DNA of 64,000 bases from Candidatus Nomurabacteria bacterium. GTDB taxonomy: Bacteria > Patescibacteriota > Minisyncoccia > Phycocordibacterales > UBA9973. Under the pieces are notes generated by a model that did no database searches, was not told the DNA's origin, and saw only the letters and a program-made list of their open reading frames with translations. The DNA is taken from NCBI GenBank assembly GCA_016699085.1, contig CP064958.1, positions 3,785 to 67,784 on the forward strand, in the 5' to 3' direction. Positions 3,454 to 52,138 of the stretch are shown here, piece after piece. Numbering within the stretch: the stretch's first letter is position 1; each line of letters begins with the position of its first letter. The position numbers were made by a program, and so were the translations under genes.

Positions 3454-5583
3454 TTAAATATATCGCTTTTGAAGTCCCCAGGTAATGATCATCATCATGA
3501 CACCAAGTATTGCAACACCGCTTGTTGCAGCACCCGTCTGTGGCAATGTCTCAGCATTTGCGCCTAAGACTTCGCCGCCCGTTGCTCCGCCACCACCGCC
3601 AGCATTACTTCCATTTTCAATCTTTGCTCCAAGTACTGCTCCACCACCTGATGTCGGACGACTGCCACCGGTAACCGTACCGTAGTAAGTGCCCCCAGGA
3701 AGTCCTCCACCAGGTGTAGTGTTTGTACCACCAGTAGTATCTCCTCCATTGCCACCACCTCCGCTTCCGGGAATATCATCATTAGTTATAGTGCATGTTT
3801 TGTTTTCATCTAAGCCTATAGTGATCGATCCTGCACTGTCGCAATCTCCACTGTAACTAACCTCATACCCAGTAGCACCCGTCTCTGTTACTGTATATGT
3901 TCCGACATTGACACTAGCACTTACTCCAGAGACAACTCCTGTTGCTCCGACAAACAATGGGAAGTCACTAACGATTCCTGTGCCTCCGTTATTATTGACA
4001 ACGACTTTCGTAACAGTCACAGTGCCAGTCTGAGTTCCACCACCACTACCTCCCCCACCAGGATCTTCGCAAGAATCAGGCTTTGTGTAGTAAGCATAGA
4101 ATCCATCAGCCTTTGGTGTCGTATGCATTTCAAAATTGACTGCGTCATCTACTATAGAGAATGAATCCTTTTGTGTATCCTTGAGTTCCATTTTATTAAA
4201 ATCAACATCGTTCGTAACACCCATTAGTGCTGCATTCATGAATGTAAGTGCTCCGATCGTGTGTTCATGACCATCATCTGTATGATTTGCGTATTGATTG
4301 AGTCTAACATATCCATCATTTCGTTCTATAGCAAATCCTTGGACATCTTGGTAACTAGCTATATCAGGATCGATAACTGATGCTACGCTATTACCAATAT
4401 AGAACCATGTATCTGTTGGAATTTTATTTGCTAGTGTATTACCACCAACGTAAACATCACTCGTCATGTTCCCTGCACTAGTATTTTCTAGTGTGGTCAC
4501 AGACACTTTAGCAAATGCCTTATCAGTACATACATTTGTATTTTGACATTGTACTGTACAAGATTCACTGGCGCCGCTTGTGTCGCATGATTCCCATGAT
4601 TGATTCACAGTACCATCACCACAAAATGCAGGAATGAGATCCTCACCGCCTGTATCATCAACAGTGTCGCAATTCGCAATGCCGATTCGTAAGTGGTAGA
4701 GAACTCCTGCAGTATTCAAAAGTGGATCATCGCTACCTGCCATATTGGTCACCTCGATTTTGATTGTATTTGTGCCTGCATGTAGGATGCTTGGATCAAT
4801 ATCATACTTATCTTGAGTTCCTAAAGTATAATTATCCTCACTTGCATCAGCGCCAACAGCTATATCATTTACCCACACCTGATAGGAGTTATCAGCCGCA
4901 ATCATAAGCTGTGCCTTAAAGTAGGTTTCGTCAACTGGCAATGTAAAATTTTTCTCAAATGTCTTTGTTTCCGCAATGCTTGGATTTTGAACGAGAAGAC
5001 TATCCCAAATCCAGGTTGCATTGGGTACATCTGCACTCCAAAGGCCATGTTCTGTTGTTGCCACAGCATTACCACCACCACTAACAGTATTCGCTGTATT
5101 GCTTAGGACAATCGCAGCGTCCATTTGGCATGAGTCGCCATAGGTATCCTGAAATACATCTAAAAATGGAGAGTCACTGTCTTCGAGATTGCTCACATAT
5201 ATGACACCATCGATAACGGTTTGATTTTCGAAAGCTTTCTCACTAGATTGATTTATAGTTTTCTGTATGGGGGCTGTAAATATGTCTCCTATTGCAGCTG
5301 ACATTGAAAGTACAGTTTCAATGACTGATGGAGTTTCAACGACTGTTTCAGTTGGAGGCAGAACTTCTTCTGTACTAACTGTCTCGTCTGAGATAACGCT
5401 TGGTATAGTCTCCTCTGTCATTGGCACAATAGGAGGTACTACTTCAGTAACTACATTTTCGTCTTCAGCATATGCTCGAAATGCAAAAGTATCGCCAAAT
5501 GCAATAGTAATAAATAAAAGCATACTTGCTGTAAGTATCCAAATATAGGCCTGATTCTTTGCGAGAATAGAATATGACTTCAT
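3454..5583 (-). CDS. LPXTG-anchored cell-surface protein (Gly/Thr-rich, Cys-rich module, Ig-like repeats)
   Basis: Signal peptide; C-terminal LPQTG followed by hydrophobic segment and KRYI positive tail; low-complexity GGGSGGG linkers. Confidence 0.8.
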   Translation of the reverse strand: MKSYSILAKNQAYIWILTASMLLFITIAFGDTFAFRAYAEDENVVTEVVPPIVPMTEETIPSVISDETVSTEEVLPPTETVVETPSVIETVLSMSAAIGDIFTAPIQKTINQSSEKAFENQTVIDGVIYVSNLEDSDSPFLDVFQDTYGDSCQMDAAIVLSNTANTVSGGGNAVATTEHGLWSADVPNATWIWDSLLVQNPSIAETKTFEKNFTLPVDETYFKAQLMIAADNSYQVWVNDIAVGADASEDNYTLGTQDKYDIDPSILHAGTNTIKIEVTNMAGSDDPLLNTAGVLYHLRIGIANCDTVDDTGGEDLIPAFCGDGTVNQSWESCDTSGASESCTVQCQNTNVCTDKAFAKVSVTTLENTSAGNMTSDVYVGGNTLANKIPTDTWFYIGNSVASVIDPDIASYQDVQGFAIERNDGYVRLNQYANHTDDGHEHTIGALTFMNAALMGVTNDVDFNKMELKDTQKDSFSIVDDAVNFEMHTTPKADGFYAYYTKPDSCEDPGGGGSGGGTQTGTVTVTKVVVNNNGGTGIVSDFPLFVGATGVVSGVSASVNVGTYTVTETGATGYEVSYSGDCDSAGSITIGLDENKTCTITNDDIPGSGGGGNGGDTTGGTNTTPGGGLPGGTYYGTVTGGSRPTSGGGAVLGAKIENGSNAGGGGGATGGEVLGANAETLPQTGAATSGVAILGVMMMIITWGLQKRYI

Positions 5584-10670: not shown

Positions 10671-11102
10671 TTATTTATTCAGATACGTAATCGTAAACTG
10701 CAACACTGTCGCAAACAAAACCCAGAGTAAATACGGAATATTGAGAAATATAATCCAGGTAAGTGTCGGTGATCCTGTCTCAATATGAGATTTGAGAGAG
10801 AATATATAGAGAGAGGCAAGTGCCCAGATAAGTGTGCCAAGTACAAAAAATATATCAACAGACGCGAGAAGATTATTCTTCAATCCAAACTGGATCGGTG
10901 TGAAAGCAAAATTGAAAACTAAATTCAACGCGTACGGAAGTGCCACCATCCATGGAATCTGTCCTTGATATGCACGATAGAAAACCGTACCAAATGTAAT
11001 CGCAATGATTATATACAGCACGGTCCACACCGGACCAAAAAGCCAGCTTGGCGGAGCCCATGTTGGTTTTATTAAAGTTGAATACCAGTTGTATGTGTTC
11101 AT
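10671..11102 (-). CDS. tspO: TspO/MBR (tryptophan-rich sensory protein) family
   Basis: WYxxLxKPxWAPPxWxFGPVWTVLY N-terminal signature, five TM helices. Confidence 0.8.
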   Translation of the reverse strand: MNTYNWYSTLIKPTWAPPSWLFGPVWTVLYIIIAITFGTVFYRAYQGQIPWMVALPYALNLVFNFAFTPIQFGLKNNLLASVDIFFVLGTLIWALASLYIFSLKSHIETGSPTLTWIIFLNIPYLLWVLFATVLQFTITYLNK

Positions 11103-11173: not shown

Positions 11174-11208
11174 TTCCTTATTGCAGTCTTTTGCAAAATG
11201 CTAGTATA
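11174..11208. repeat. 35-bp conserved motif copy A (ttccttattgcagtcttttgcaaaatgctagtata)
   Basis: Contains 10-bp perfect palindrome TTTTGCAAAA; overlaps the last 10 codons of the ArsR gene, 72 bp upstream of tspO start. Confidence 0.8.
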
Positions 11209-11450
11209 GAGATTGCCTTTGAGGTGAGTTTGTGGCGGACATTGGGGCCATCATTGCGCTTCATAATAAGTCTGGCAATCGCCATTTTGCGAATATGGTC
11301 TGAGGTATTTTCATACCCTATCTTGAGCTTCTCTGATATATCTGCCACTGATAATTCCGGTTGCTTTGCCAGTAATTCCAAAATCTTTAGCCGATTATGA
11401 TTGGCAAAGCCTTTTAATAATCTTTCAACTTTTCGATAATCTAGTGCCAT
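11178..11450 (-). CDS. ArsR/SmtB-family HTH transcriptional regulator
   Basis: NHNRLKILELLAKQPELSVADISEKLKIGYENTSDHIRKM winged-helix pattern, 90 aa. Confidence 0.75.
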   Translation of the reverse strand: MALDYRKVERLLKGFANHNRLKILELLAKQPELSVADISEKLKIGYENTSDHIRKMAIARLIMKRNDGPNVRHKLTSKAISILAFCKRLQ

Positions 11451-11475: not shown

Positions 11476-11510
11476 TTTCTTATGCTAGTGTTTTGCAAAA
11501 TGCTAGTATG
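11476..11510. repeat. 35-bp conserved motif copy B (slightly diverged)
   Basis: tttcttatgctagtgttttgcaaaatgctagtatg, 25 bp upstream of ArsR start. Confidence 0.7.
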
Positions 11511-11640: not shown

Positions 11641-12096
11641 TTATATGGTTGTATTATTTAATACCGCTTTAGCAAAAGGCACAGAAAAGGCTTTGCACCA
11701 GATCCAGACTTCTTCTGGAGATACACCTTCCGGCAATTCATAATTTTGAGAGCCCATATTTCCCTTCAACACACTAAGTTCACTACCTTTTATATAACTA
11801 CCGTTTTGTCCAAGGCCTACATATAGATCAGGTCCATTAGCAACCACAAAATCTTCTTCAAAACGAATATAGTTTTTACCACCAATCGATATAACATTTG
11901 CAGTACCAGATCCAGTATGGATTTTATCAAAGCCGGCAAACTGACCTTGTTTTATAACCTCGACACTAGTATCTTCTGTATTTTCGGCAATAGGTAACGT
12001 TTCGCTGACTATTTTATTTATAAAAAATGGAGAAATAAAATAATATCCTGCACCCAGTAAAATAATAACGATTGTGGTTATAACTATTTTTTTCAT
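11641..12096 (-). CDS. Secreted DM13-domain protein
   Basis: Signal/TM N-terminus; HTGSGTANVISIGGKNYIRFEEDFVVANGPDLYVGL matches DM13 domain pattern. Confidence 0.55.
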   Translation of the reverse strand: MKKIVITTIVIILLGAGYYFISPFFINKIVSETLPIAENTEDTSVEVIKQGQFAGFDKIHTGSGTANVISIGGKNYIRFEEDFVVANGPDLYVGLGQNGSYIKGSELSVLKGNMGSQNYELPEGVSPEEVWIWCKAFSVPFAKAVLNNTTI

Positions 12097-12125
12097 AAAT
12101 TTATTCTACCATTTTTCTCTCAATA

Positions 12126-12160
12126 TTCCTTATTGCAGTGTTTTGCAAAATGCTAGTATA
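12126..12160. repeat. 35-bp conserved motif copy C
   Basis: ttccttattgcagtgttttgcaaaatgctagtata, 30 bp upstream of DM13 gene start. Confidence 0.8.
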
Positions 12161-12182: not shown

Positions 12183-12312
12183 ACAAGGGGCACTATATCC
12201 TGCGGAGCATCCTTGTGCCAAAACAGTACAATAGGCGCAACTGCAACACCCCCGCGACAATGTAATTTTTTTTCATATTGGTTTGATGAATGGTGACTGA
12301 CTCCATTTCCTT
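12183..12312. repeat. 125-bp repeat family, copy 1 (about 88% identical to 14981..15110)
   Basis: Direct comparison of the two regions; contains small minus-strand ORF. Confidence 0.75.
12193..12276 (-). CDS. Possible 27-aa peptide MKKNYIVAGVLQLRLLYCFGTRMLRRI inside repeat copy 1
   Basis: ATG..TAG ORF; reading frame preserved relative to copy 2 by two compensating 1-nt indels. Confidence 0.3.
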   Translation of the reverse strand: MKKNYIVAGVLQLRLLYCFGTRMLRRI

Positions 12313-12355
12313 TTTTGGGGAGATATTATAAAACGGCGTGGATTGTTCTCTTAAA

Positions 12356-13363
12356 TTAAACTAGCAAATATTTTGTTTGCTCAAGATATTTTTGTATACC
12401 TTCAATTTTCTCTAATCCTTTAGTTTTGTGCATATAAGGAAGTTTGACAGTTATATTTAAAACCAAAAAAGCATGAAATAATTTTTTGTCATATTCTTCA
12501 TCTCCAAAATACCCATCAACAAATTGCTCACCAGTTTTCCCTATTCCTCCTTTCGAAATTTTATGAAAGAGACTTCTTGTTATATCCATAAATGGGTGGT
12601 GAAAACATGGCCACGGATCAAATACTGTAAACGGTTCTGTGGCAAAAACATTTCCTCCTCCAAAATCATTATGGCAATAAACACTTTCTTTACTGTCTCC
12701 AATATTGGAAATTAAAATGTTAAAAACATCTTCTATTGAACCATGGATATCATCATCCAAAAGTTTATGTTCTTTAACGTATTCAATTTGTGTTTGCATA
12801 TTAGAATCACCTTTCAACCATTCAGCAATACTAAAATATTCAGGTTCACTTTTTTTATTAACAATATTACTGTATCCCTCCGTTTTTGCTTCGTGCATTT
12901 TTCGAAGCAACTTACCCAAATCGTGATATACATTTTTTTCTAGCATTTCTTCTTTTGTATAGGAACTACTAATAGTTTCAGAATCAATATATTCCATTAA
13001 GATATATGGTTGCTCACCAATCTCACCTTCTTCTAAAACATGCGGAACTTTTACGCCTACATTTTCCCAAGTAGTCAAAAATACCCCTTCAAGTCTAGAA
13101 TTTAAAGTACTTAATGGGATTTTTAAGATAAGTTTTTGCTCTAGTGTTTCAATAATACTTACAAGAGAAGAGATACCAGCATGTATAAAAGTAACATCAA
13201 CCTTTTTGCCAGAAAATAAAGGATGTTGAGCTATAAAATCTTTCATTAGAGGAACAAGCTTTTTTCTTCGCTCATTAAACTTTTGATCCACCTCATGTTC
13301 AGAAAGTTTTGGTTCGTTAGTAAAAGTAATTTTTTGAGATGTTTCCATAGCTATTTTATTCAT
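12356..13363 (-). CDS. Aminoglycoside/choline-kinase-type phosphotransferase (APH/ChoK fold)
   Basis: YCHNDFGGGN (HxDxxxxN catalytic loop) and VFDPWPCFHHPFMD (DxD/metal-binding loop). Confidence 0.6.
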   Translation of the reverse strand: MNKIAMETSQKITFTNEPKLSEHEVDQKFNERRKKLVPLMKDFIAQHPLFSGKKVDVTFIHAGISSLVSIIETLEQKLILKIPLSTLNSRLEGVFLTTWENVGVKVPHVLEEGEIGEQPYILMEYIDSETISSSYTKEEMLEKNVYHDLGKLLRKMHEAKTEGYSNIVNKKSEPEYFSIAEWLKGDSNMQTQIEYVKEHKLLDDDIHGSIEDVFNILISNIGDSKESVYCHNDFGGGNVFATEPFTVFDPWPCFHHPFMDITRSLFHKISKGGIGKTGEQFVDGYFGDEEYDKKLFHAFLVLNITVKLPYMHKTKGLEKIEGIQKYLEQTKYLLV

Positions 13364-13391
13364 AAATCTATTTTATCATTTTTTACTAAAT

Positions 13392-13426
13392 TTCCTTATT
13401 GCAGTGTTTTGCAAAATGCTTGTATA
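13392..13426. repeat. 35-bp conserved motif copy D
   Basis: ttccttattgcagtgttttgcaaaatgcttgtata, 29 bp upstream of kinase gene start. Confidence 0.8.
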
Positions 13427-13441: not shown

Positions 13442-13834
13442 TTAATGGTATTTCCAAGCTGTTTGTTTCAATTCCTTTCGGATAGCACTATGGTTGGGCA
13501 CAAGTTCGGCCACTAAATTCCAAAAATTTGCAGAATGATTGAATTCCTTTATGTGGCACAATTCGTGCACTATTATATAGTCGGCAATATGGGGCGGTAA
13601 AAATAAAATTTTGTAATTAAAATTTAAATTCCCCTGCTTGGAGCAGCTACCCCAGCGGGATTTGGTATTTCGAATGGACACCCTTCCCACCTTATAACCA
13701 TAGTGAGTATTGAGCTCGCCAATCTTCTTATGCACCAACCCCCGAGCATCTTCTTTGTATTTTTTATAATCCCACCGAGTATACTTTTTCTTTCCTAAGA
13801 AATTTAAAATTCCGTTTAATGATATTAAAGAATT
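13442..13834 (-). pseudogene. N-terminally truncated YgjP-like (DUF45) metal-dependent hydrolase fragment
   Basis: RWGSC...DYIIVHELCHIKEFNHS (HExxH) matches C-terminal half of the full-length paralog at 15133..15882; open frame only from 13834, TTG start at 13738, in-frame stop at 13835..13837; about 110 N-terminal residues missing. Confidence 0.5.
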
Positions 13835-13861
13835 TTAACACAGCACGTTGTCACATAACTA

Positions 13862-13896
13862 TTCCTTATTGCAGTGTTTTGCAAAATGCTAGTATG
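13862..13896. repeat. 35-bp conserved motif copy E
   Basis: ttccttattgcagtgttttgcaaaatgctagtatg; immediately followed by perfect hairpin ctaggaaggt-aag-accttcctag (13898..13920). Confidence 0.8.
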
Positions 13897-13916
13897 TCTA
13901 GGAAGGTAAGACCTTC

Positions 13917-13991
13917 CTAGACAGGTTTCGGCACCTCCCCAATTTGTAAAACTTCAGGTGGGCCATATTTTTTACAAAGTATTGCTTTCAT
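13917..13991 (-). pseudogene. 24-aa remnant of the N-terminus of a zinc-type alcohol dehydrogenase / quinone oxidoreductase (MDR) gene
   Basis: Minus strand encodes MKAILCKKYGPPEVLQIGEVPKPV then stop; classic MDR N-terminus; leader aaaaatgctaaaataaatttATG resembles leaders of neighbouring cassette genes. Confidence 0.4.
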
Positions 13992-14193
13992 AAATTTATT
14001 TTAGCATTTTTAATAACAAAGCATTCTCACGTGTGTGCGCAATCTCGATCGCAAAGGAGAATAGGAATGAGCGCGGGGCTCCCTATTGTTTTTTATTAAA
14101 TATATGTTATATTGTTGGTTGAATTAGGTCAACGGGCTATACCTAGTTTAATCAAAGACAAATAGCTCTTTCACAATTTAATACCACTGTAAA

Positions 14194-14832
14194 ATGTCAA
14201 AAAAAGACACTGGTTTAATGCTCTCTACAGTAAAGGGACCATTAGCAAATCTCCTTGATAATCTATCAGGAGCAAACGCCGGCTACTGGCTTAAAGTAGT
14301 TAAAAAAATCTTGAGAGGTGAAAATCCTTTCGCAGAGAGAGAAGCAGAGTTATCTGCTCAACGAACGCTTGTACTATCTTTTATTGTTGAAGTTGATGGG
14401 ACAAAACCCTACGGCTATGGTTTCGTAAGAAATCACAATTTCAATGAGGATAATTTTCCTATCAAGGATAAAACTAAGCGAACCGTAGTCATTGATGTGT
14501 TCCATTTCGGCACCCAATCAGCTGAGATTGATTTTGGACATCATCCTGTTACAACTAATTGGATGATTGGAAAAATGGAGAGGTATGGTTGTCGTCCCGC
14601 TAACACCGAAGAACTCGTGAGTTTAGCGAAATGCCACCCTGAAATCTTGAAAGATTTAAAAATCACAACACTCGATTTCAATTCAGCATGGCTTTATAAT
14701 GGCCGCGGAGGAGATTACGAAATCCCTGTACTAACACAGACAGAACATGGTCAAAATTTTATTGATTTGATTATGTACTTTAATGGTGTATGGGGAAAAG
14801 AACTTAGCTTTGCTGGTGTACGAATTCAGTGA
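14194..14832 (+). CDS. Hypothetical protein (only plus-strand gene in this island)
   Basis: 212-aa ORF, no recognisable motif. Confidence 0.5.
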   Translation: MSKKDTGLMLSTVKGPLANLLDNLSGANAGYWLKVVKKILRGENPFAEREAELSAQRTLVLSFIVEVDGTKPYGYGFVRNHNFNEDNFPIKDKTKRTVVIDVFHFGTQSAEIDFGHHPVTTNWMIGKMERYGCRPANTEELVSLAKCHPEILKDLKITTLDFNSAWLYNGRGGDYEIPVLTQTEHGQNFIDLIMYFNGVWGKELSFAGVRIQ

Positions 14833-14980
14833 CAGTGAGAAACTAATTATTTTTTTAAAACTATTTTCCTTCAAAAAGAAAGTAGTTTTTTTATTTCACC
14901 TTCATTAGTGAAGCAAAAAGATATGTTGTTTCAATTGATATGCAAGAACAGTCCTTGCATATCAGACAAGAGTTCCATCA

Positions 14981-15110
14981 AGGGGCATCATATCCTGCGG
15001 AGCATCCTTGTGCCAAAACAGTACAATACCTGGAACTGCAACAACCCCCGCGACAATGTAATTTTTTTCATATTGGTTTGACAAGCGGTGACTAACCCTA
15101 TTTCCATTTC
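14981..15110. repeat. 125-bp repeat family, copy 2
   Basis: Matches 12183..12312. Confidence 0.75.
14988..15071 (-). CDS. Possible 27-aa peptide MKKITLSRGLLQFQVLYCFGTRMLRRI inside repeat copy 2
   Basis: ATG..TGA ORF; C-terminal 13 aa identical to copy 1. Confidence 0.3.
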   Translation of the reverse strand: MKKITLSRGLLQFQVLYCFGTRMLRRI

Positions 15111-15132: not shown

Positions 15133-15882
15133 TTAACTAGTCTGAACCCCGACAGTTTCCAGCTTATCCTTCACTTTCTCCCATTTCGGAAACTTCTTCT
15201 TCAAGAACTTATAAAAAAGTTTATTGTGACTTCTGTACTTCATATGGCACAACTCATGGACGATAACGTAGTCGATACATTCGCGTGAAGTATGAATGAG
15301 TTTTGGATTCAAAATGACCGTGTCGTTGTCGAGGAAGCTACCCCAACGCTTCTTCATCTCTCTAATAACAAGTGGTGGCATCTTCTTGTAATCAAACTTT
15401 GCTTGCATCAACTCGAATCGCTCATGGAAGACTCGGCCAACTTTTTCTTCGTACCACTTGTCCAAAAGTTTCTTGGTGTGTCGTCCATCCTGCACGCCTT
15501 TGCTTGTATAGACCATAAGCAATCCCTTGGTCATAGACACCTTGTCTTCACTCGAACGCTTCACCATGAGCTTGTACTGCTTGCCGAGATAGAGAAATCC
15601 TTCGCCTGAGACGTATTCCTTCTGGTACACGCGTCGCTGATACTTCTTGAAGAAGCTCAGTTGTTTCTCAAGCCAAAACCACTTCTTTTTTAAGAAGGTT
15701 TCTACTCGCTCATCTTCTGCGCCATGCGGAGCTTTAAGGGTTATTCCGAGGTCTGGTTTTACTGTGAGACTGAGAGTCAGTCTATCTTGCATGACGAGGT
15801 CGTAGTGGTAGACAAATGAGCCAAATACAAATTCTTTTTTAGCTGAAGATTTCATAATTGTTTTCTGCAAGTGAAAGGACAC
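15133..15882 (-). CDS. YgjP-like (DUF45) metal-dependent hydrolase, full length
   Basis: RWGSF...DYVIVHELCHMKYRSHN HExxH motif; position downstream of hsdR is typical for this family. Confidence 0.7.
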   Translation of the reverse strand: MSFHLQKTIMKSSAKKEFVFGSFVYHYDLVMQDRLTLSLTVKPDLGITLKAPHGAEDERVETFLKKKWFWLEKQLSFFKKYQRRVYQKEYVSGEGFLYLGKQYKLMVKRSSEDKVSMTKGLLMVYTSKGVQDGRHTKKLLDKWYEEKVGRVFHERFELMQAKFDYKKMPPLVIREMKKRWGSFLDNDTVILNPKLIHTSRECIDYVIVHELCHMKYRSHNKLFYKFLKKKFPKWEKVKDKLETVGVQTS

Positions 15883-18800
15883 TCGAAATGACGAGCTTCA
15901 TGTCGTCATCCGACAGGTCGATATTCTTCTCCTTCTTCACTACATCGTAGAGATAGTCATCGATAGTGTTCATGATGCGACGCTTCACGTCGATATTCTT
16001 GTACCAATCGACAATTGCTTCCTGCTTCACGATACCGAAGATATCCAAGACAATGGAGATAAACACTTCCTCTGGCATGTTGAACTTCTTGAAGCAATCC
16101 CTGAGGTTGCGGTAGAAGACATCAGAACCTTTCTCGGCAACGATGGTGCTAGGCAAACTATCGTCCTTCTTGTTAACCACATCGTCTTCAATCAACTTCA
16201 ACTGCTTGAGTGCGGCGACATCAGCTATCTTGCCGTCTCGCATCTCCTGCAAGATTTGAGAGATTTTCTTAGAGAATCGTTCGTAGAATTCGGGGTCAGA
16301 CTCCATCCGTTCAGTGATGGTCTTTTGGGTCTGTGCCGCGATTGCTTCGGCTTTGGATTTATCAGAGCCGAGGTTCTCAATAGCTTCCTCAAACTGCTTG
16401 CGGTCAGTGATGTTGATTTGTGTCGTCAAAAGCTCAACGCCTCGCGCATCAACATACTTATCGAGAATATTCACGAGAGATTGTTTGTACTCGGAGAGGT
16501 CAACGCGGTCTGCATACTTCAAACTCGCAGTCTTACGAAGCTCCATGAACTTCTTGAGCTCACGCGTGTACATATCGAGATGAGGAAAAACATGGACGAA
16601 ATCTTGCAGGACAAAACACTCGTTCAAGTTCTTAATGAACGAATTGAGTGCTTTGTAGAACATCTCCCGTTTTGGAGCATCATCAAGAAGCTGAAGAAAT
16701 GCTTCATCGTCGGATGACCCCTTAATCTCCTTGAAGATGTCGTGTACCAAGCTGTAGCTCTCCTCAAGTTCCTGCACCTTCTCAGCAACATCAATAAGCG
16801 TTCCTTTAACATCGTTCTCGTCGTAGTTACCGAAGAGCTTCATCGCAGTATCGATGTTCTTGGCATTCTCTGAATAGTCGATAATATAGCCCGCGGTCTT
16901 TGGGAGCTTCTTGTTTTCGTGTAAGCGATTCACACGAGCGATTGCCTGGAGCAGGTTATGGTCCCTCAAGTCCTTTGCGAGATAGAGTACGGTATTGCGT
17001 GGAGCATCGAACCCAGTGAGCAGTTTGTCGACAACGATAATGATTTCAATGCCATCATCGTTGTACTTGAAACTATCGATAGCATCCTTCTCATACTTCC
17101 CAACATTACTGTGATTCTCACGGACGGTATCGAGATACTTCACCACTTCCTTCTTGTGTGTGTCTTGCTCGTCTCCGTCATCGTGTTCATCAGAGATAAC
17201 GACAGCCGTGCGGACGTTTGCACGAGTCTGGAAGAACTTCTGGAAGAGTACTGCTGAATACTTAGACGGAGCAACAATCTGCGCCTTGAGTCCAGTGTTC
17301 TGGAAGTGGTGCATGAAGTGCTTCTCTATATCGTAGGCAATCTCAACAATACGTTGAGGATTGTCTTTGATTATCTTGGAGCCAACATACTTCTGGAGTT
17401 CCTTCTTCTGTTTGTCGTTGAGGTCTTCGGTAACGCGAGCAACGTGTCGGTCGATTTGTTCTTCGTTCTGAATCAAATCAACATAGCGACCTTCATAGAT
17501 AAGAGGAAGGATGATTTTGTCAGCCAATGCGTCATCGATGGTGTACTTGTCGATATAGCCACCGAACTTTCTCCAGCTCTCTTTCTCTCCCTTCATGAGT
17601 GGCGTACCCGTAAAGCCGATGTAGCACGCACTCGGAATGATTCGATTCATTTCTACGTTTGCGATACCACTCTGGCTTCGGTGTGCTTCGTCGATAAGAA
17701 CGAAGATGTTTTGGTCTTCATCAACAAATCCTGCCTTTTTCTTGGCAGCTGATTCAAATTTGTGAACCAGTGTCGTAACGACAGCGAGGTTTTTATCCCT
17801 GATGAGGTCGAGCAGGTTTTGACCACTCGTTGCCTGTATCACTTCTTTTTTGAGATTACAGTTCTTGAACGTATCTTTGATTTGTTTATCCAAGTCCTTA
17901 CGGTCGGTCACGATAATGACGCGTGGATTGTTTATGTGAGGGTTCTCAATCAGAGCTTTCACAAACATCACCATGGTGAGTGACTTACCAGACCCTTGTG
18001 TGTGCCACACCAAACCACCTCGGCGACGAGTGATACCTGAAGGGCTTGTCTCTGTCTCAGCAACACGCTCAAGCATCTTGTGAATTGCAAAGTACTGTTG
18101 GTAGCGAGAGAGTTTCTTTACTCCAGCATCAAAGAGAATGTAGTTCTTAGTGAGGTCGAGAAGTCGAGCGGGCTCAAAGAGTGCCGCGATGCCACGGTCT
18201 TGTTCAGTTGGGAGACGATTCATTTTCTGCACGTGACCTTCGGTGTATCCGTTTAGGTCAGTGAGAATCTGGGCGTATACAGTCGGGTCTACTTTTGTAG
18301 CAATCAGTGCTTTTGCTTTAGCATTTTCGTCTGCTTCAGGCGTACTTTTCTCTTTCCAGACTGCATAGAATTTATTTGGTGTGCCAATAGTGCCGTACTG
18401 AAGCTCTTTGCCGTTTGTACCAACAAGAAGTTGGGTGTAGGTAAAGAATTTAGGACAAAACTCTGGACCCTGATTGCGGTTCATCTGGTTAATAGCTTCT
18501 AGCGTTGCTACTCCTGACTTCTTGTTCTCAATGACCGCGATAGGGATACCGTTTACGAAACAGACGATATCGGGACGAATGGTTTGCTTTCCAGTCACGA
18601 CGAATTCTGCCGTCACATGGAAGGCGTTATTCTCTGGATTTTGGAAATCTATAAAACGGAAGTTTTTAGAAACTGTCTTTCCTCCAACGCTTACCTTGAT
18701 AGTCTTACCACCGCTTGTTGGCATGATGGTGTTGTAGATTTTCTGTGCGGTATCAATAAGACCTTCGTACTGAATATGTTCGAGCTCATCTATAGCGTCG

Positions 18801-19027
18801 CGTACGTCCTTCTCGCCGAATTTGTACTCAGTGCCAGCGACTTCGTAGCTGTTGATTTCCATGAGCTTCTCATTGGCAATATCAGTGAGAATGAAACTAC
18901 TCGTGTCACCACCGCGCTGACGTAGTGCCTCTTCAGTAGAGATGTATTTGTACCCCATAGCCAAAAGGAGCTCCAATGCTGGGAGTTGGGACTGTCGTGC
19001 TTCATCAAAGTGTACTTTTTCTAGCAT
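15839..19027 (-). CDS. hsdR: Type I restriction enzyme R subunit (HsdR)
   Basis: WHTQGSGKSLTM (motif I), VLIDEAHRSQ (DEAH), FTGTP, LQAIARVNR (motif VI); 1062 aa. Confidence 0.9.
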   Translation of the reverse strand: MLEKVHFDEARQSQLPALELLLAMGYKYISTEEALRQRGGDTSSFILTDIANEKLMEINSYEVAGTEYKFGEKDVRDAIDELEHIQYEGLIDTAQKIYNTIMPTSGGKTIKVSVGGKTVSKNFRFIDFQNPENNAFHVTAEFVVTGKQTIRPDIVCFVNGIPIAVIENKKSGVATLEAINQMNRNQGPEFCPKFFTYTQLLVGTNGKELQYGTIGTPNKFYAVWKEKSTPEADENAKAKALIATKVDPTVYAQILTDLNGYTEGHVQKMNRLPTEQDRGIAALFEPARLLDLTKNYILFDAGVKKLSRYQQYFAIHKMLERVAETETSPSGITRRRGGLVWHTQGSGKSLTMVMFVKALIENPHINNPRVIIVTDRKDLDKQIKDTFKNCNLKKEVIQATSGQNLLDLIRDKNLAVVTTLVHKFESAAKKKAGFVDEDQNIFVLIDEAHRSQSGIANVEMNRIIPSACYIGFTGTPLMKGEKESWRKFGGYIDKYTIDDALADKIILPLIYEGRYVDLIQNEEQIDRHVARVTEDLNDKQKKELQKYVGSKIIKDNPQRIVEIAYDIEKHFMHHFQNTGLKAQIVAPSKYSAVLFQKFFQTRANVRTAVVISDEHDDGDEQDTHKKEVVKYLDTVRENHSNVGKYEKDAIDSFKYNDDGIEIIIVVDKLLTGFDAPRNTVLYLAKDLRDHNLLQAIARVNRLHENKKLPKTAGYIIDYSENAKNIDTAMKLFGNYDENDVKGTLIDVAEKVQELEESYSLVHDIFKEIKGSSDDEAFLQLLDDAPKREMFYKALNSFIKNLNECFVLQDFVHVFPHLDMYTRELKKFMELRKTASLKYADRVDLSEYKQSLVNILDKYVDARGVELLTTQINITDRKQFEEAIENLGSDKSKAEAIAAQTQKTITERMESDPEFYERFSKKISQILQEMRDGKIADVAALKQLKLIEDDVVNKKDDSLPSTIVAEKGSDVFYRNLRDCFKKFNMPEEVFISIVLDIFGIVKQEAIVDWYKNIDVKRRIMNTIDDYLYDVVKKEKNIDLSDDDMKLVISSVLSLAENNYEIFS

Positions 19028-19033
19028 GGTGTT

Positions 19034-20260
19034 TTAGTTATGGGTTGATAATTTTTCTGGTGTCCGAATCGTTCCTGTAATGAGATTGTTCAAAAGATAC
19101 CGTTTTTGTTCTTGGAGAACTTTTAGCTTACGCTTAAGAACTTGAATTTCTTCGTCCGCAGTAGTAAGTATGTTTGCAATTGCATCTTGTTCGATTTTTG
19201 GAGGAAAAACAGCCTTAAAACCTTCAAAGACTTTAGCCGACAAATGTTTAACCGTTGTAGAACTAGTTTCTTGTTCGATTATTTTTAAAGGAACTTGAAT
19301 CTTATAGAAGAGATAGTCTTTATTTGCATTCTTAAATGCCACCAACTTTCCCACTCGTTGGTTTAAGAGAGCCTTGCCTTTAGACCATTTACAAGTCATG
19401 AAATCACCGTCCATCCCGATCAAAATATCCCCGTCCTGTACAGTGTAAGAATCTGGAATATCCGTCCCGGAATAGTACAAAATCTGACCATCTCCCTTTA
19501 AATCTCTATTTCTTACCACACGAACACCTCTCTCTTCAGAAAAATATTTAGACGGAAAAGGAAATCCGCTCCAAAATTTACATGCATCACCAAACGACTT
19601 GGATTCCCATTTGTCTTTAAACTCTGGTAAACGAGTTTTGCCCGTAAGTAATTCCTGCATCAAACCTTTTTTAATATGCTTTTTGTTTTCAATCTTCTGG
19701 GCAAGTTTTCCAATAGCTTTGTCCCAAGTCTCAAGTACTAAAACAATTCTTTTCTGCTCAGAAACGGGCGGGAGTTTTATGTTTACATGATTGAGTAAGG
19801 TGCCACTGGTTAGAGCACGGGTTGTGTATGAACTTTTCTCCATTATCTCTTTACGGGCTGATTGAGTACGAAAACAGTATTGAGCATATTCAGGAACTAG
19901 CACTTTACTTTTAGGACGAGCCCGTAGAACGAAGCCACTAAAAACAGTGTCTCGAAAGTCATCTAGTGCAACAGCAGAAAATCCGATTTCATCCAATGTT
20001 TCTGAGGTTCTAGTAAAAAAAACATCGCCTCTCTTTACATTGAATCTACCTAACTCAGATTTATTAACCTCAACTCTCCCTAATACATTATCTTTGTAGA
20101 GTCCACCGCCTTTATTAACGTCCATGTAATTGATTATCGGGGTGCCGTGTCCAAAAAACTCTTTTTCTTTGTTGAGTCCGTTTTTGAAATCAAAAAGACC
20201 TACGAGCTTCATAGCTCGCCATCCTTTCGGGATATTCTCTTGTATAGGTTTATTTTTCAT
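19034..20260 (-). CDS. hsdS: Type I R-M specificity subunit (HsdS), two target-recognition domains
   Basis: 408 aa, duplicated TRD architecture with conserved central and C-terminal coiled regions. Confidence 0.85.
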   Translation of the reverse strand: MKNKPIQENIPKGWRAMKLVGLFDFKNGLNKEKEFFGHGTPIINYMDVNKGGGLYKDNVLGRVEVNKSELGRFNVKRGDVFFTRTSETLDEIGFSAVALDDFRDTVFSGFVLRARPKSKVLVPEYAQYCFRTQSARKEIMEKSSYTTRALTSGTLLNHVNIKLPPVSEQKRIVLVLETWDKAIGKLAQKIENKKHIKKGLMQELLTGKTRLPEFKDKWESKSFGDACKFWSGFPFPSKYFSEERGVRVVRNRDLKGDGQILYYSGTDIPDSYTVQDGDILIGMDGDFMTCKWSKGKALLNQRVGKLVAFKNANKDYLFYKIQVPLKIIEQETSSTTVKHLSAKVFEGFKAVFPPKIEQDAIANILTTADEEIQVLKRKLKVLQEQKRYLLNNLITGTIRTPEKLSTHN

Positions 20261-21098
20261 CTAGCTTTTTAATGGCTCCGAGTTGTTGTGAAATGGATTG
20301 CAATTGCTTCTTCACCTCAGCGTCCTTATCTTTTTTCTTCTTTTCATCTATCTTTTGATCCAGGATTAGCTCAATTGAGAGCTTAAGTGGCAAGAAATAC
20401 TGCCGACACTCATCTTCAGAGAGTTCGTGCACGCCCCTACTTAGAATTCCGTATATTGCTTTCATTTCAACAAGCTGGCTTGGAAGATGTTCTTTAAGAA
20501 GAACGATTTTATCCTCCATCCTCGTAGTCTTAAATACATCAGCCGCAACCTTTAGATCTTTAGCTCCACTAAATGTTTCTTGGATAAGATTCTCAAAGAT
20601 TCGACGCAAATAAACAAATGAGCCCGCCCCTGCACCGTGAGCTGCAAGACCAATAGCTTTTTTAAGATTCTTCAAATCCTCTTCAGGAAGAACCTTGTCA
20701 TACTTTTTACCCAATTCAGCAAATTGCAGGTCAGCCAAAGATGGGAATTGGCCAACTTTCATGACTTGCTTGGTCATTTCATTCTTATATACAAAGAAAC
20801 ATAGAGTATCGTTGTCCTTTCTCTTGCACTTAAGAGTCACGACAGCAAAGCCGCTAACCTTTTCAGGTGTGTACTGATTTACATACTCTGTGTCTAGCTT
20901 TTTTATCCACGAAAAACCCACACTGTAGGTAGTGTCGGTGTGATTTTTTGCTGAGTAGGCATCTACGTCTTCAGAAAATAGCTCCAACGGTTTCTCAAGA
21001 TCAGAGTATTCAAATAATTCGTATATTGGGGTTTCAAAGTAAAAATCATGCTTAGTTAATTTCGCCTTTTCTAATTCTGTGTTCGCTTGTTCGGTCAT
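20250..21098 (-). CDS. Hypothetical protein embedded between hsdM and hsdS (possibly DUF4145-like)
   Basis: 282-aa ORF with start/stop overlapping neighbours; C-terminal region GLAAHGAGAGSFVYLRRIFENLI...LSRGVHELSEDE loosely resembles DUF4145 proteins often found in type I R-M loci; assignment by memory only. Confidence 0.55.
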   Translation of the reverse strand: MTEQANTELEKAKLTKHDFYFETPIYELFEYSDLEKPLELFSEDVDAYSAKNHTDTTYSVGFSWIKKLDTEYVNQYTPEKVSGFAVVTLKCKRKDNDTLCFFVYKNEMTKQVMKVGQFPSLADLQFAELGKKYDKVLPEEDLKNLKKAIGLAAHGAGAGSFVYLRRIFENLIQETFSGAKDLKVAADVFKTTRMEDKIVLLKEHLPSQLVEMKAIYGILSRGVHELSEDECRQYFLPLKLSIELILDQKIDEKKKKDKDAEVKKQLQSISQQLGAIKKLDEK

Positions 21099-21099
21099 A

Positions 21100-22614
21100 T
21101 TAGTTGATTCCTAGTTCCTTTAAATATCCGACCATTTGTTTTTCAAGCTTCTGAAGCTCAGGCTCAAGGGAGGCGAGCTCCTTGAGGTTTGCCTTAATAT
21201 CTACAGGCGCCTCTTCCTCGAAGGTATCGACATAGCGAGTGATGTTGAGATTGAATTCGTTTTCTTCTATCTCACTGACGCTGACCTTGCGAGAAAACTT
21301 CTCAATATCCTTCCTCTTCTTGTAGGTATCAAAAATCTTCACAATATTTTCCTCGGTCAGCGTGTTCTGTGCTTTGCCTTGCTTGAACTCCTTTGAGGCT
21401 TCGATAAATAGGACATCTTTCTTCTTTTCATTCGCACCACCTTTCTCGCGTGAACGGTCAATGACCAACACAGCAACTGGAATACCAGTAGTCTGGAAGA
21501 GTCCTGCTGGAAGTCCGATGACGGTATCGATAATATTTTCATTCAAGAGTTGCTCGCGAATCTTTCCTTCAGCACCACCTCGGAAGAGAACACCGTGAGG
21601 GACGATGACCGCGACGCGTCCAGTTTTTGGCTTTGCGGTTTCAACCATATGAGTGATGAATGCAAAGTCGCCTTTATCTTTTGGCGGTACACCACGCCAG
21701 AAGCGATTGTATTTATCTGACTCGGCATGTTCAGCACCCCACTTCTTGAGGGAGAAGGGTGGGTTCGCGACCACTACGTCGAAGTGCATGAGGCTGTCGT
21801 TCTCCACCAAGAGCGGATTGTTGAGCGTGTCGCCCCATTCGATACGAGCAGAGTCTTTGCCGTGGAGGAACATGTTCATACGAGCGAGCTGGTATGTAGA
21901 GCCAGTAGATTCCTGACCGTAGAGCGCATAGTTCTTTGAACCTTGCTTCTCAACTTCCTCACCAGCCAAGAGAAGTAGACCTCCCGAACCGCAGGCAGGG
22001 TCTGAAATTCTGTCACCCTCTTTTGGTTCGGCAAGCATTGCGACGAGATGTGCGACTGAACGTGTGGTGAAAAATTCTCCCGCTTTTTTGCCAGCATCCG
22101 CACCAAAACGCTCAATCATGTACATGTAGGAATTACCGATTATGTCATCGTCTACATCAGAGAGGTCAATCTTTGCAAAGTCCTGAATCAAATTACGGAG
22201 CATCTTGTTGCGCTGTTCAAGTTTGCCAAGGATTGATTCGGAGTTGAAATCGACACTGAACACGCCATCAAGTTTTTCCTTGTTAGCATCTTCAATGCGG
22301 TGAAGTGCTTTGTTTATTTCTTCACCAATATTATCCTCCTCAATCTTGCTGTAGAGATAATCAAAGGACGACTTCGGGGGTAGGTAGAAGCGGTCGAGCT
22401 TCATTTTTTCTTCGATACGCTTTTCGTCGCTTCCGAAACGCTCCTTGTATTCGTCGTGACGCTTTTTGTTGAGGTCACTTATATATTTCAAGAAAAGCAT
22501 CGTCAACGCATAGTCTTTGTAGACACCACCGTCCACGCTACTACGTGAAGAATCAGCCGCCGACCAGAGCGTCTTGTTGAGGTCTTCCTGTGTGTATTTT
22601 TTGTGAGTAGTCAT
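21100..22614 (-). CDS. hsdM: Type I R-M N6-adenine DNA methyltransferase subunit (HsdM)
   Basis: VVANPPFS catalytic motif IV, SAM-binding DPACGSGG motif I, 504 aa. Confidence 0.9.
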   Translation of the reverse strand: MTTHKKYTQEDLNKTLWSAADSSRSSVDGGVYKDYALTMLFLKYISDLNKKRHDEYKERFGSDEKRIEEKMKLDRFYLPPKSSFDYLYSKIEEDNIGEEINKALHRIEDANKEKLDGVFSVDFNSESILGKLEQRNKMLRNLIQDFAKIDLSDVDDDIIGNSYMYMIERFGADAGKKAGEFFTTRSVAHLVAMLAEPKEGDRISDPACGSGGLLLLAGEEVEKQGSKNYALYGQESTGSTYQLARMNMFLHGKDSARIEWGDTLNNPLLVENDSLMHFDVVVANPPFSLKKWGAEHAESDKYNRFWRGVPPKDKGDFAFITHMVETAKPKTGRVAVIVPHGVLFRGGAEGKIREQLLNENIIDTVIGLPAGLFQTTGIPVAVLVIDRSREKGGANEKKKDVLFIEASKEFKQGKAQNTLTEENIVKIFDTYKKRKDIEKFSRKVSVSEIEENEFNLNITRYVDTFEEEAPVDIKANLKELASLEPELQKLEKQMVGYLKELGIN

Positions 22615-22616
22615 GG

Positions 22617-23201
22617 TTATTTGATGGTTAAGCTTTTAAATGTTGCGTTGATAATGTTTTGTTTGATTTCCTTTTCTCTATCAATAATTTTTTGCTGTTC
22701 GCGAATGTTTATAAAAAGATTTATGAGTGCCTCCTGCTTTCGCAGGGGAGGTATCGGGATGTCTATTTTTTCTAACTCTTTACGAGGCAGTGCTCCGATG
22801 TATGAACCTGAAATAATCTGAGTGAGAGACTCCTGACCCTCTTTAGAATTTAAATAGTGTGAAAGATATTCTGGAAGTACTTCTTTCGAGGTGACACGGA
22901 TGACATGGACGGAGGAAGAAGGAATGACGTTCGATTCATCGGCAATATATGTGGTTGACCTGAATGCGCCTGACTTCATGCCACGAGCGACGAGAAGGAC
23001 ATCGTTCTTTTGGAGGTGACCGGAATACCCAGGGGTATCGTGAGATATTCTGGTGAGGGTTTTCGTATTATCAAACGGTACTCCTTGGACGAGGTCTTTT
23101 GCCTGAAATACAAAGAGGTCGCCAGTGTTGTCTGGCTTGATGGCACCTCGGAAGGTGTACCCTGCAATTACCTCTGATACTTCATGCAATTTCATATACA
23201 T
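22617..23201 (-). CDS. Half-size type I R-M specificity subunit (single TRD HsdS)
   Basis: 194 aa; one TRD plus conserved C-terminal helical spacer (LRKQEALINLFINIREQQKII). Confidence 0.65.
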   Translation of the reverse strand: MYMKLHEVSEVIAGYTFRGAIKPDNTGDLFVFQAKDLVQGVPFDNTKTLTRISHDTPGYSGHLQKNDVLLVARGMKSGAFRSTTYIADESNVIPSSSVHVIRVTSKEVLPEYLSHYLNSKEGQESLTQIISGSYIGALPRKELEKIDIPIPPLRKQEALINLFINIREQQKIIDREKEIKQNIINATFKSLTIK

Positions 23202-37088: not shown

Positions 37089-37187
37089 TACACTATAAAA
37101 TTACAAATGTCAACAAACAAAATCCGCTCAAGAGCGGATTTTGTTTGTATTTTCTATTTACTATTCACTAATTACTTTTTACTTTAT

Positions 37188-37990: not shown

Positions 37991-38671
37991 CTAAAGTATA
38001 GCTGTGAGATTATTGAAGTCACATTCGTATATAACTTTATCGGCGAATCCTAATTCGATTGCGGGTAGTGGTGGAATACGAGTATCCATACGAAAAAGTT
38101 CACGCAAACAATCCTTTGATATTTTTTTTGTTGATGCATTCAAGAAAAATCCATACATCTGCTCTTGTGGAAGTTGCAACGTCTCTTTTTCCTTTTTTTG
38201 TTCCTCAAAAAGAGCTTTCAAATCAGTCTCCGCAGTAATCGGTTTTGATTTTGCGCTAATTAAGTGAAAATACAAAGAAGAGCCAGGTTCATACATAATA
38301 CGTATGGTGCAAGCTTGAAATACTAATGCACCAATAGAATCTACTCGTCCCCATGCAACCCCAACTATTACAACATTATATTTTTCACGATACTCTTCTA
38401 AAATTAAACGATACATTTGGTAGCCTGCCTTTACATTGCCCCCATTTGTTTCAAAAAAAATGAAAATTGGTTCTGTATTTTCTTGGCAAAGTTTGTACAG
38501 TTTATCATTTAAAGAAAGAAGATCTTTTTTACTTAGACCATTTTGTGTAATAAAAACAATTCTGCGTTCCAACTGTTCTTCTGGTGTGAAAGAAGGCAGT
38601 GGAGATTTTTGATGTTTTTTCAAGGTGCCTCCTTTTAATTTGACAGTATAGGAATTAAATAAGTATGTCAA
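37991..38671 (-). CDS. ClpP-family (S14/crotonase-fold) serine peptidase-like protein
   Basis: IFIFFETNGGNVKAGYQMY (cf. ClpP IYLYINSPGGSVTAG), VDSIGALVF (Ser), YFHLI (His), ELGFADKVI (cf. ClpP EYGLIDEVL). Confidence 0.45.
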   Translation of the reverse strand: MTYLFNSYTVKLKGGTLKKHQKSPLPSFTPEEQLERRIVFITQNGLSKKDLLSLNDKLYKLCQENTEPIFIFFETNGGNVKAGYQMYRLILEEYREKYNVVIVGVAWGRVDSIGALVFQACTIRIMYEPGSSLYFHLISAKSKPITAETDLKALFEEQKKEKETLQLPQEQMYGFFLNASTKKISKDCLRELFRMDTRIPPLPAIELGFADKVIYECDFNNLTAIL

Positions 38672-38729
38672 TTTATAAACCCCGTTTTTAAAATTTTAAA
38701 AACGGGGTTTATGATTTACATACCATAAA

Positions 38730-52082: not shown

Positions 52083-52108
52083 TCCATCTCAAAGACAAAT
52101 AATAAAAG

Positions 52109-52132: not shown

Positions 52133-52138
52133 TGCTCC

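Follow-up and report, generated by a model that had tools for sequence, protein, structure and literature searches.

A 64-kb stretch of DNA from a Candidatus Nomurabacteria bacterium (contig CP064958.1; the whole of it is called the window below) contains, on its minus strand between 10.6 and 14.0 kb, an accessory gene array of ∼4 kb in which five co-oriented copies of a 35-nt motif, A to E, head, in order, the genes for TspO, an ArsR/SmtB-type regulator, a DM13-domain protein, an APH-type kinase, and a YgjP-like protein. The interval 13442–14000, which is the upstream end of this array, also holds a fragment of a quinone oxidoreductase (QOR) gene and had been read in a preliminary description as a site of active cassette recombination. 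The explanation that we favor, with a probability of roughly 0.6, is that the motif belongs to a repeated operator–promoter module that is also a recombination substrate, and that the array is not an integron.

In the mechanism that we propose, a portable module of ∼60–75 nt would head the kinase, DM13, and short YgjP-like genes and would consist of the 35-nt motif, an A-rich spacer, and an extended -10 box (TGnTAnAAT) placed 6 nt before the ATG. Transcription would start at the A of the start codon and give leaderless mRNA. The ArsR/SmtB-type regulator would bind the palindrome within the motif, at one site in its own promoter and at a second site in its last nine codons that would serve the next gene. 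Because the module is co-oriented, repeated, and common to related Patescibacteria arrays, it would be a substrate for recombination between short direct repeats, probably together with homologous exchange after DNA uptake. Genes would thereby drop out, enter, or change their order, with the breakpoints falling inside or at the motif, and the QOR fragment would be a by-product of this process, ∼0.85 kb having been deleted up to the 5' edge of motif E with the downstream promoter left intact.

The window is chromosomal DNA that carries genes for EF-Ts, RpoB/C, sigma-70, DnaG, and TrmD, as found in a Pfam scan that covered ∼60 of its open reading frames (ORFs). It was compared with 73 fetched loci (L-numbers), all of which come from metagenome assemblies. 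The features of the array and its flank are as follows.

10671–11102, minus strand: TspO/MBR gene (cargo; Pfam), directly downstream of the regulator gene
11174–11208, minus strand: motif copy A, overlapping the last nine codons of the regulator gene (ILAFCKRLQ and stop), upstream of TspO
11178–11450, minus strand: gene for the 90-aa ArsR/SmtB-family winged-helix regulator (Pfam HTH_5, NCBIfam, and PDB profile matches)
11476–11510, minus strand: motif copy B, of putative autoregulatory type (..CACTAGCATAAG), followed by a TATAAT box 8 nt before the regulator ATG
11641–12096, minus strand: DM13-domain gene (cargo; Pfam PF10517)
12097–12125, minus strand: DM13 leader, extended -10 box TGGTAGAAT at 12111–12103, spacer AAATTT
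12126–12160, minus strand: motif copy C
12184–12314, minus strand: 130-bp conserved non-coding repeat, copy 1, 3' of the kinase gene
12356–13363, minus strand: APH-family kinase gene (cargo; Pfam PF01636)
13364–13391, minus strand: kinase leader, extended -10 box TGATAAAAT at 13378–13370, spacer AGATTT
13392–13426, minus strand: motif copy D
13442–13825, minus strand: short-form YgjP-like (DUF45) zincin gene, 127 codons, HELCH (Pfam PF01863)
13826–13840, minus strand: extended -10 box of the YgjP-like gene (TGTTAAAAT, 13840–13832) and 6-nt spacer, with the same geometry in L002, L056, and L072
13862–13896, minus strand: motif copy E, CATACTAGCATTTTGCAAAACACTGCAATAAGGAA, putative ArsR-like operator with core TAGCATTTTG/CAAAACACT
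13895–13923: perfect hairpin with a 13-bp stem and a 3-nt loop, at the QOR deletion junction, supplying the stop codon of the stub
13917–13991, minus strand: 5' stub of a QOR (MDR zinc-binding dehydrogenase) gene, 24 codons and stop, from alignment to intact QOR genes
13992–14011, minus strand: QOR leader with A-tract, extended -10 box TGCTAAAAT at 14006–13998, and spacer AAATTT, without an upstream motif
14979–15109, minus strand: 130-bp repeat, copy 2, with a sister-strain synteny break inside it near 15030

The shared leader is a promoter module

The preliminary description noted that three unrelated genes (the DM13 gene, the kinase gene, and the QOR stub) share a near-identical leader, and this observation holds: the 25-nt leader pattern AAAAATGNTANAATANATTTATGAA occurs exactly three times in the window, on the minus strand at 12092, 13359, and 13987, against a chance expectation of 0.01. 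In each case, the sequence TGnTAnAAT is followed by six nucleotides and an ATG (12111–12094, 13378–13361, and 14006–13989), and ahead of the YgjP-like gene TGTTAAAAT is followed by six nucleotides and an ATA (13840–13823). A -10 box beside the start codon is a general habit of this genome, as a TAnnnT box lies 4–9 nt before the start of 17 of the 47 window genes, compared with 12.6% of all ATG triplets, and a Shine-Dalgarno-like site is present in only 3 of the 47. Because 15 of these 47 genes begin with ATGAA, the first codons common to the three leaders reflect largely a general bias; the three leaders resemble one another more than other window promoters do.

Together with the motif, the leader forms a module of ∼60–75 nt in which the ATG lies at a constant 58–61 nt from where the palindromic core begins; the stretch that separates the palindrome from the -10 box likewise varies little from genome to genome. 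In many Patescibacteria, this motif-plus-leader sequence (∼60–65 nt) heads unrelated genes; those in L005, L009, L010, L021, and L056 include those for a DUF4386 protein, a 2-hydroxyacid dehydrogenase, a peptidase S51, a 197-aa protein, and a zinc ribbon protein. The leader also occurs without the motif (QOR in three genomes; L002 at 2839; L009 at 5794 and 7945). Because it is present without the motif and ahead of unrelated genes, we conclude that the shared leader, as judged from its sequence, is a promoter module and not a recombination scar; its earlier use as a sign of recombination is not supported.

Transcripts usually begin at a set distance from the -10 box, which here would fall on the A of these ATGs. 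Since the -10 box ends 6 nt before the ATG, transcription is predicted to begin at the A of the start codon, and the geometry of these leaders suggests that they give leaderless mRNA. Promoters of leaderless mRNAs in Actinobacteria, Deinococcus, and archaea have a -10 box ∼7 nt upstream of the start codon. The predicted promoters of the array are like these in three ways: a TAnnnT box ends 6 nt ahead of the ATG, a Shine-Dalgarno site is absent, and the start codon is AUG. They differ from them in their A-tract and TG extension and in a consensus that is unusually uniform across unrelated genes.

Elsewhere in the window, near-identical promoter regions (ttgactttttgataattc..tatataat) lie upstream of 56940 and 57933, ahead of two small ORFs without a Pfam match.

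The motif as a putative operator of the 90-aa regulator

All five copies of the motif are on the minus strand within one 2.7-kb stretch, spaced 0.3–1.3 kb apart, and no sixth copy is found elsewhere in the 64 kb. The motif core is a 20-bp quasi-palindrome (TAGCATTTTG/CAAAACACT); perfectly symmetric cores, with halves that are both TAGCA or both TAGTG, are found in L030 (TAGCATTTTGCAAAATGCTA) and in L012, L044, and L046 (TAGTGTTTTGCAAAACACTA). When public genomes and metagenomes were scanned, the motif turned up in many metagenome-assembled genomes (MAGs) of Patescibacteria, and the module is 86–97% identical among MAGs labelled Nomurabacteria, Saccharibacteria, Minisyncoccia, and Vogelbacteria. 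Within the window, copies C and D are 82–85% identical in two overlapping stretches of 45–48 nt that jointly cover motif and leader. When the motif-plus-leader of copy D is compared with L005, L009, L010, L007, and L056, and that of copy C with L005, L010, and L056, the identity is 84–92% over ∼66–89 nt.

The regulator encoded between copies B and A matches Pfam PF01022 (HTH_5) with 32.1 bits (cut-off 22), NCBIfam HTH_metalloreg with 52.8 bits (just under the cut-off of 55), and the PDB profiles of CadC, HlyU, CzrA, and SmtB (E 2e-9 to 4e-5). It belongs to a family of >700 clusters, nearly all of which are exactly 90 aa long. In all homologs examined, the motif brackets the regulator gene, with one copy in the promoter and one that makes up the last nine codons, where it reads ATA CTA GCA TTT TGC AAA xxA CTG CAA TAA (ILAFCKxLQ and stop). 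As a guard against ascertainment bias, six divergent homologs (69–72% identity) were picked by protein search alone, independently of the motif, and in 6 of 6 the TTTTGCAAAA core is found both upstream of the ATG and within the last nine codons. In L062, L063, and L068, the central TTGCAA lies 16–17 nt upstream of the -10 box and therefore overlaps the -35 position.

The regulator C terminus reads SIL(A/V/M)FCKxL(Q/E/A), with I82, F85, C86, K87, and L89 invariant in 27 diverse proteins, and codons 82–87 are without synonymous variation in 17 regulator genes whose other codons vary, in a sample that was partly motif-selected. C86 is the sole invariant cysteine of the alignment, in which H18, D51, H52, and H73 are also invariant. 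The TspO gene follows the regulator gene directly in the window, L015/L050, and L068; L004 has a GNAT gene between the two. Proteins of the ArsR/SmtB family act as dimers on palindromic operators that are located at the promoters of their own genes. From this combination of features, the 90-aa regulator of the array most likely uses the palindrome as its operator, with predicted functions in autoregulation and in control of the next gene.

Other origins and functions of the motif were considered and set aside. A phage or mobile-element origin was rejected, as only one viral contig matched and this match was without the extended motif. A role as a DNA uptake sequence was ruled out because, of the whole 64 kb, only a single 2.7-kb stretch has copies of the motif. 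A degenerate motif-like similarity upstream of the QOR leader was treated as chance because it is absent in L004. Nothing relevant came from literature searches for the motif core or for ArsR in the Candidate Phyla Radiation.

A separate block was observed in the GC-rich metagenome contigs L019, L025, L029, L035, L036, and L038, where ∼45 conserved nt (agcgggaatctattaaacatcgcacc...) lie directly upstream of every motif copy; in L036, this block is present four times in 2.3 kb.

Comparative support for recombination at the repeats

The sister strain, represented by L056 and L064, is ∼98.7% identical to the window, with values of 98.4–99.8% over ∼28 kb. Missing from it is precisely the 302-bp stretch that begins with motif B, ends with motif A, and holds the regulator gene, and a single hybrid motif remains in its place, made of the upstream flank of copy B and the 3' half of copy A. 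This hybrid structure places the crossover within 19 identical bases. The synteny of the two strains stops inside the second 130-bp repeat, near 15030, and upstream of this point they carry different restriction-modification genes.

More distant relatives carry the same genes in other orders: QOR, motif E, short YgjP-like gene, motif B, and ArsR in L002; QOR, motif B, ArsR, GNAT, and TspO in L004; ArsR, motif C, and DM13 in L007; and the short YgjP-like gene followed by DM13, without motifs, in L072. When the window is compared with five other genomes, the homology blocks start or stop at a motif copy, the hairpin, or a -10 box, which is the coincidence of breakpoints that the preliminary description had predicted for homologous loci of relatives. 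The L072 locus (3900–4570) has the short YgjP-like and DM13 genes at 91% DNA identity to the window copies, neither with a motif, and its homology to the window ends exactly where the motif has its 3' edge (13870) and where the extended -10 box has its TG (12111). In L072, these two genes follow CBASS-like (SMODS/AGS_C) and restriction-modification genes.

The 130-bp non-coding repeat in which the second strain-level break falls has two copies in the window (12184–12314 and 14979–15109, ∼87–90% identical), located 3' of the kinase gene and of a full-length YgjP gene, and is also present in L002, L005, L009 (two copies), L021, L028, L056 (three copies), and L072. Neither a conserved ORF nor covariation is seen in it, and Rfam gave no match. 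The possibilities that it is a structured RNA or a small-protein gene were rejected, the former from the absence of covariation and the latter because the small ORF is broken by frameshifts and, in some copies, by a stop codon. Next to copy 2 lies a type I restriction-modification operon (15133–23201) with hsdM (21100–22614), hsdS (19034–20260), a half-hsdS (22617–23201), hsdR (15839–19027), and the full-length YgjP gene (15133–15882). This operon is replaced in L056 by other methyltransferases and DUF6996/6997/7226 genes, and thus a variable defense island adjoins the array.

Based on these sequence comparisons, the proposal that recombination occurs at the repeats is supported at the comparative level. 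Fixed-site cassette exchange of the kind known from integrons, by contrast, is not supported, as no integrase, transposase, or other recombinase was found among the ∼60 ORFs scanned with Pfam and the repeat has no attC-like structure. We infer that short-direct-repeat recombination, with homologous exchange after DNA uptake, would explain most of the pattern and that a dedicated recombinase would not be required.

The QOR fragment is a deletion remnant

The ORF at 13991–13917 (minus strand) translates to MKAILCKKYGPPEVLQIGEVPKPV followed by a stop codon and had been taken for the N-terminal stub of a QOR. This assignment is confirmed by comparison with L002 and L004, whose intact QOR genes have 5' ends with 89% DNA identity to the stub over 86–110 nt (E 1e-26 and 9e-36, respectively). 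The intact gene of L002 (Nomurabacteria) encodes a 302-aa QOR and directly precedes motif E, which is followed, as in the window, by the short YgjP-like gene. That of L004 encodes a 306-aa QOR and lies directly upstream of motif B and the regulator gene. The L002 protein has ADH_N (GroES-like) and Rossmann ADH_zinc_N domains, with quinone_pig3 as its best NCBIfam match, below the cut-off. On the minus strand, the order in the window is leader (14011–13992), 24-codon ORF, hairpin, motif E, second -10 box, YgjP-like frame, and motif D. The alignment shows that the window retains QOR codons 1–24, which are followed by the hairpin and then by the 5' flank of the motif; ∼0.85 kb is gone, and the 24 codons left include neither the ADH_N nor the ADH_zinc_N domain. 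Because intact QOR genes hold this slot in L002 and L004, a point that the preliminary description had asked to be checked, we conclude from the alignments that the stub is a true deletion remnant.

The hairpin at the end of the stub is real but larger than the 10-bp stem at 13898–13920 first reported: it has a perfect 13-bp stem (13895–13907 and 13911–13923) with a 3-nt loop, a dG of -24.7 kcal/mol, and a z of -5.4. The sister strain L056 has an identical stub and hairpin. Further copies of the hairpin were found neither elsewhere in the window nor in the 73 fetched loci (the sister strain L056 apart) nor in viral contigs, and this lack of other copies rules out the idea that it is a repeated element.

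A second QOR 5' stub, of ∼20 codons, is present in L056 (2397–2540), where it is joined through ATTGC to the complete motif and leader of a peptidase S51 gene, with breakpoints unlike those of the window stub. A possible third and shorter stub in L072 is weak and ends perhaps at about codon 4. The comparison of the two clear stubs indicates that QOR loss beside the motif happened more than once.

In the divergent promoter region between the QOR stub and the ORF at 14194–14832, a terminator-like hairpin (AATAGGAATGAGCGCGGGGCTCCCTATT followed by a T-run) is found at 14058–14100 on the plus strand, without a plus-strand gene upstream of it.

The short YgjP-like ORF is a conserved gene

The YgjP-like ORF had been described as the remnant of a YgjP/DUF45 paralog that keeps only its C-terminal half. 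The latter part of this description is correct: the frame at 13834–13442 (minus strand) matches positions 106–206 of the 207 positions of the PF01863 profile (E 1e-35), with HELCH present, and the N-terminal part of the profile (positions 1–105) is absent in the window copy and also in L002, L056, and L072. As the nearest relatives are mostly ∼187 aa long, ∼65 N-terminal residues are missing in the 127-aa form. The full-length YgjP of the window (15133–15882) covers profile positions 2–205 and is 33% identical to the short form over 76 aa; because of this low identity, the two are not recent paralogs, and the idea that the short gene is a recent copy of the full-length one was ruled out.

The remnant interpretation is not supported by its relatives. 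L002, L056, and L072 share the 127-aa form (∼91–92% nucleotide identity or better; protein 89–92% or better), the dN/dS between the window and L002 is 0.12, indicative of purifying selection, and the gene has its own -10 box. Several independent relatives are 126–131 aa long, and one of these is an internal complete gene. At the start codon (13825–13823), the window has ATA, whereas L056, L002, and L072 have ATG 6 nt after TGTTAAAAT; this is the sole difference between the window and the sister strain in 400 nt. From these comparisons, we conclude that the YgjP-like ORF is a conserved short-form gene whose start has changed to ATA here and is not a local remnant.

Relation to known systems and alternative explanations

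By its sequence features, the array appears closest to an ArsR/SmtB autoregulated cluster and to putative mobile promoters, and its likeness to an integron is one of outline only. It is like the autoregulated repressors of the ArsR/SmtB family (SmtB, CzrA, CadC, HlyU, and BigR/SqrR) in having a small winged-helix protein and a palindrome in its own promoter and before neighboring genes, a likeness known here from sequence. It is unlike the known systems in three respects: a second site lies inside the last nine codons of the regulator family-wide, the putative targets are a variable set of unrelated accessory genes, and, as far as the alignment shows, no sensory site is identifiable beyond the invariant Cys86. 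Regulators of this family have a defined inducer site, which consists of metal alpha3N/alpha5 ligands or of a reactive cysteine pair.

Several observations weigh against the operator–promoter module and its part in recombination. About half of the motif-bearing loci are without an ArsR gene inside the fetched DNA, some of these probably being chance 19-mer matches, and the sister strain is without the regulator at this locus. In the cargo promoters of the window, the center of the palindrome is ∼48 nt upstream of the presumed start and not over the -35/-10 region. Repeats of 19–35 bp are short for RecA-dependent exchange. The comparison rests on metagenome assemblies, in which the junction without ArsR could be a collapsed repeat, though the repeats are shorter than typical assembly k-mers. 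The L072 locus has the same genes without the motif, and the entry and exit of motifs is not explained by repeat recombination alone. Finally, the QOR deletion endpoints lie beside the palindrome and not within it, and the junction hairpin is not accounted for.

An explanation that gives the repeats no special role in recombination would treat the array as an ordinary regulon cluster, in which selection on operators and promoters causes the likeness of the modules and in which ordinary chance deletions or assembly artefacts account for the stubs and for what differs between the strains. That promoter-like leaders also occur without the motif, that -10 boxes stand beside ATG codons genome-wide, and that the QOR endpoints vary (codon 24, about codon 20, and perhaps about codon 4) and fall outside the palindrome are all consistent with it, and selection to keep the downstream promoter could alone set the deletion ends at the motif border. 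We nevertheless regard it as unlikely, as the junction of the regulator unit between sister strains lies inside a repeat and leaves a clean hybrid motif, the second strain-level break falls inside another repeat of 130 bp, block ends in five further genomes match module edges, and the spacer between palindrome and -10 box, which strong selection would not be expected to maintain, is conserved across genomes.

It is similarly improbable that the motif and the A-rich spacer are a miniature mobile promoter or operator element, comparable with Correia, ERIC, or putative mobile promoters, that inserts upstream of -10 boxes independently of the regulator. The L072 locus argues for such an element, since its YgjP-like and DM13 genes keep the -10 box and leader without the motif and homology stops at 13870 and 12111, as does the 86–97% identity of the module across differently labelled MAGs. 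Yet the junctions with and without the motif, compared between the window and L072, have no target-site duplications and no terminal inverted repeats beyond the internal palindrome, no transposase was found, the motif flanks the ArsR gene on both sides in all homologs examined, and the window copies all lie in one 2.7-kb stretch with none dispersed.

Putative mobile promoters have been defined by ≥80% identity over ≥50 nt upstream of non-homologous genes, in a screen of the region from -150 to -50 (Matus-Garcia, Nijveen and van Passel 2012; PMC3575422). The module is like these in that a similar upstream sequence of ∼60–75 nt precedes non-homologous genes within a genome and across distant taxa, but it fits the definition in spirit only, because it ends at the ATG and would largely be missed in the region screened. 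It differs from them in its predicted internal structure (operator, spacer, extended -10 box, and leaderless start) and in its putative cognate regulator. In Neisseria, the intergenic mosaic elements, Correia elements, and minimal mobile elements are short promoter-carrying intergenic modules that are mosaic and mark differences in gene content between naturally transformable strains. The module described here differs from these in its unrelated sequence, its lack of terminal inverted repeats and target duplications, its Patescibacteria lineage, and the linkage of a regulator to the repeat.

A dedicated, integron-like site-specific cassette system, with a recombinase encoded elsewhere or with the ArsR-like protein as an accessory factor and with crossover at the palindrome, is in our view quite unlikely. 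The array does resemble integron arrays and CALINs (clusters of attC sites without an integrase), as it is co-oriented with one gene per repeat and has strain-variable content and junctions at the repeat; the precise presence or absence of the 302-bp unit with a junction in the 19-nt identical core, the different orders of the same genes across genomes, and independent QOR truncations that stop at motif edges would also suit such a system. The window has no IntI among its ∼60 ORFs (Pfam), which is not decisive alone because CALINs lack IntI. An attC site is an imperfect hairpin of 57–141 nt with R''-L''/L'-R' boxes and a GTTRRRY crossover point, located 3' of each ORF, whereas the repeat here is 35 nt long with a simple 20-bp palindromic core, without such arms, and with GTTRRRY on neither strand (the closest sequence is GTTTTGC). 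Integron cassettes are promoterless, carry attC at the 3' end, and are expressed from a common Pc promoter; here, the repeat lies 5' of each gene, and a predicted -10 box of the gene's own is found 6–8 nt before most starts. In addition, the repeat is tied to the gene of a transcription factor and not of a recombinase, its fixed position in the regulator promoter and last codons family-wide is what an operator predicts, and the crossovers can be placed only within 19–25 identical bases, so that ordinary repeat recombination fits equally. A bolder version, in which the palindrome would be both operator and exchange site of a Patescibacteria-specific, integrase-independent cassette system and the ArsR-like protein, with its gene bracketed by two such sites, would recognize them and promote or guide the process by which self-promoted leaderless cassettes are excised, inserted, and passed from lineage to lineage, is likewise very doubtful.

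Other features of the array and the window

The DM13 gene of the array has 92.6% nucleotide identity to that of L007 and 91% to that of L072, and an exact-sequence look-up of its protein returned no record. Besides QOR, DM13, and TspO, rhodanese-like and NUDIX genes are among the cargo. A PADLOC search for membership of the cargo genes in defense systems gave only generic winged-helix matches for the regulator. At Rfam gathering thresholds, one tRNA was found in the window, and the region from 11.1 to 15.2 kb gave nothing at E ≤ 1.

Outside the array, the segment 35632–37958 (TrmD to S16) is 94% identical to the sister strain, compared with 98.7–99.8% on either side, and the next 1 kb is unaligned, a pattern suggestive of local recombination within housekeeping DNA. 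Long palindromes that are perfect or nearly so, among them a perfect one of 52 nt, lie in intergenic DNA at 55709–55760, 38670–38717, 52098–52133, and 37113–37148 and are probably bidirectional terminators. An AT-rich block at 59000–63000 (28–30% GC, compared with a mean of 40%) contains a 1082-aa ORF without a Pfam match.

Significance

To our knowledge, regulation and genome plasticity are almost unstudied in Patescibacteria (Candidate Phyla Radiation), of which few members have been cultured. The features that appear unusual in this locus are the copy of the putative operator in the last nine codons of the regulator family-wide, the uniform module of predicted operator, extended -10 box, and leaderless start, and the variable cargo. 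A regulator that appears to have a second copy of its own site fixed in the DNA sequence of its last nine codons would be an unusual overlap of coding and regulatory sequence. The conserved YgjP-like gene and the QOR fragment also carry a warning for annotation, as conserved short-form genes can be miscalled as remnants and true stubs can be missed. The locus offers a testable candidate regulon, in which an ArsR-like regulator of 90 aa that is found family-wide is combined with a 20-bp site of defined sequence and with a compact promoter, and it indicates that a repeated regulatory module can act as a seam for swaps of accessory genes between strains and lineages with very small genomes.

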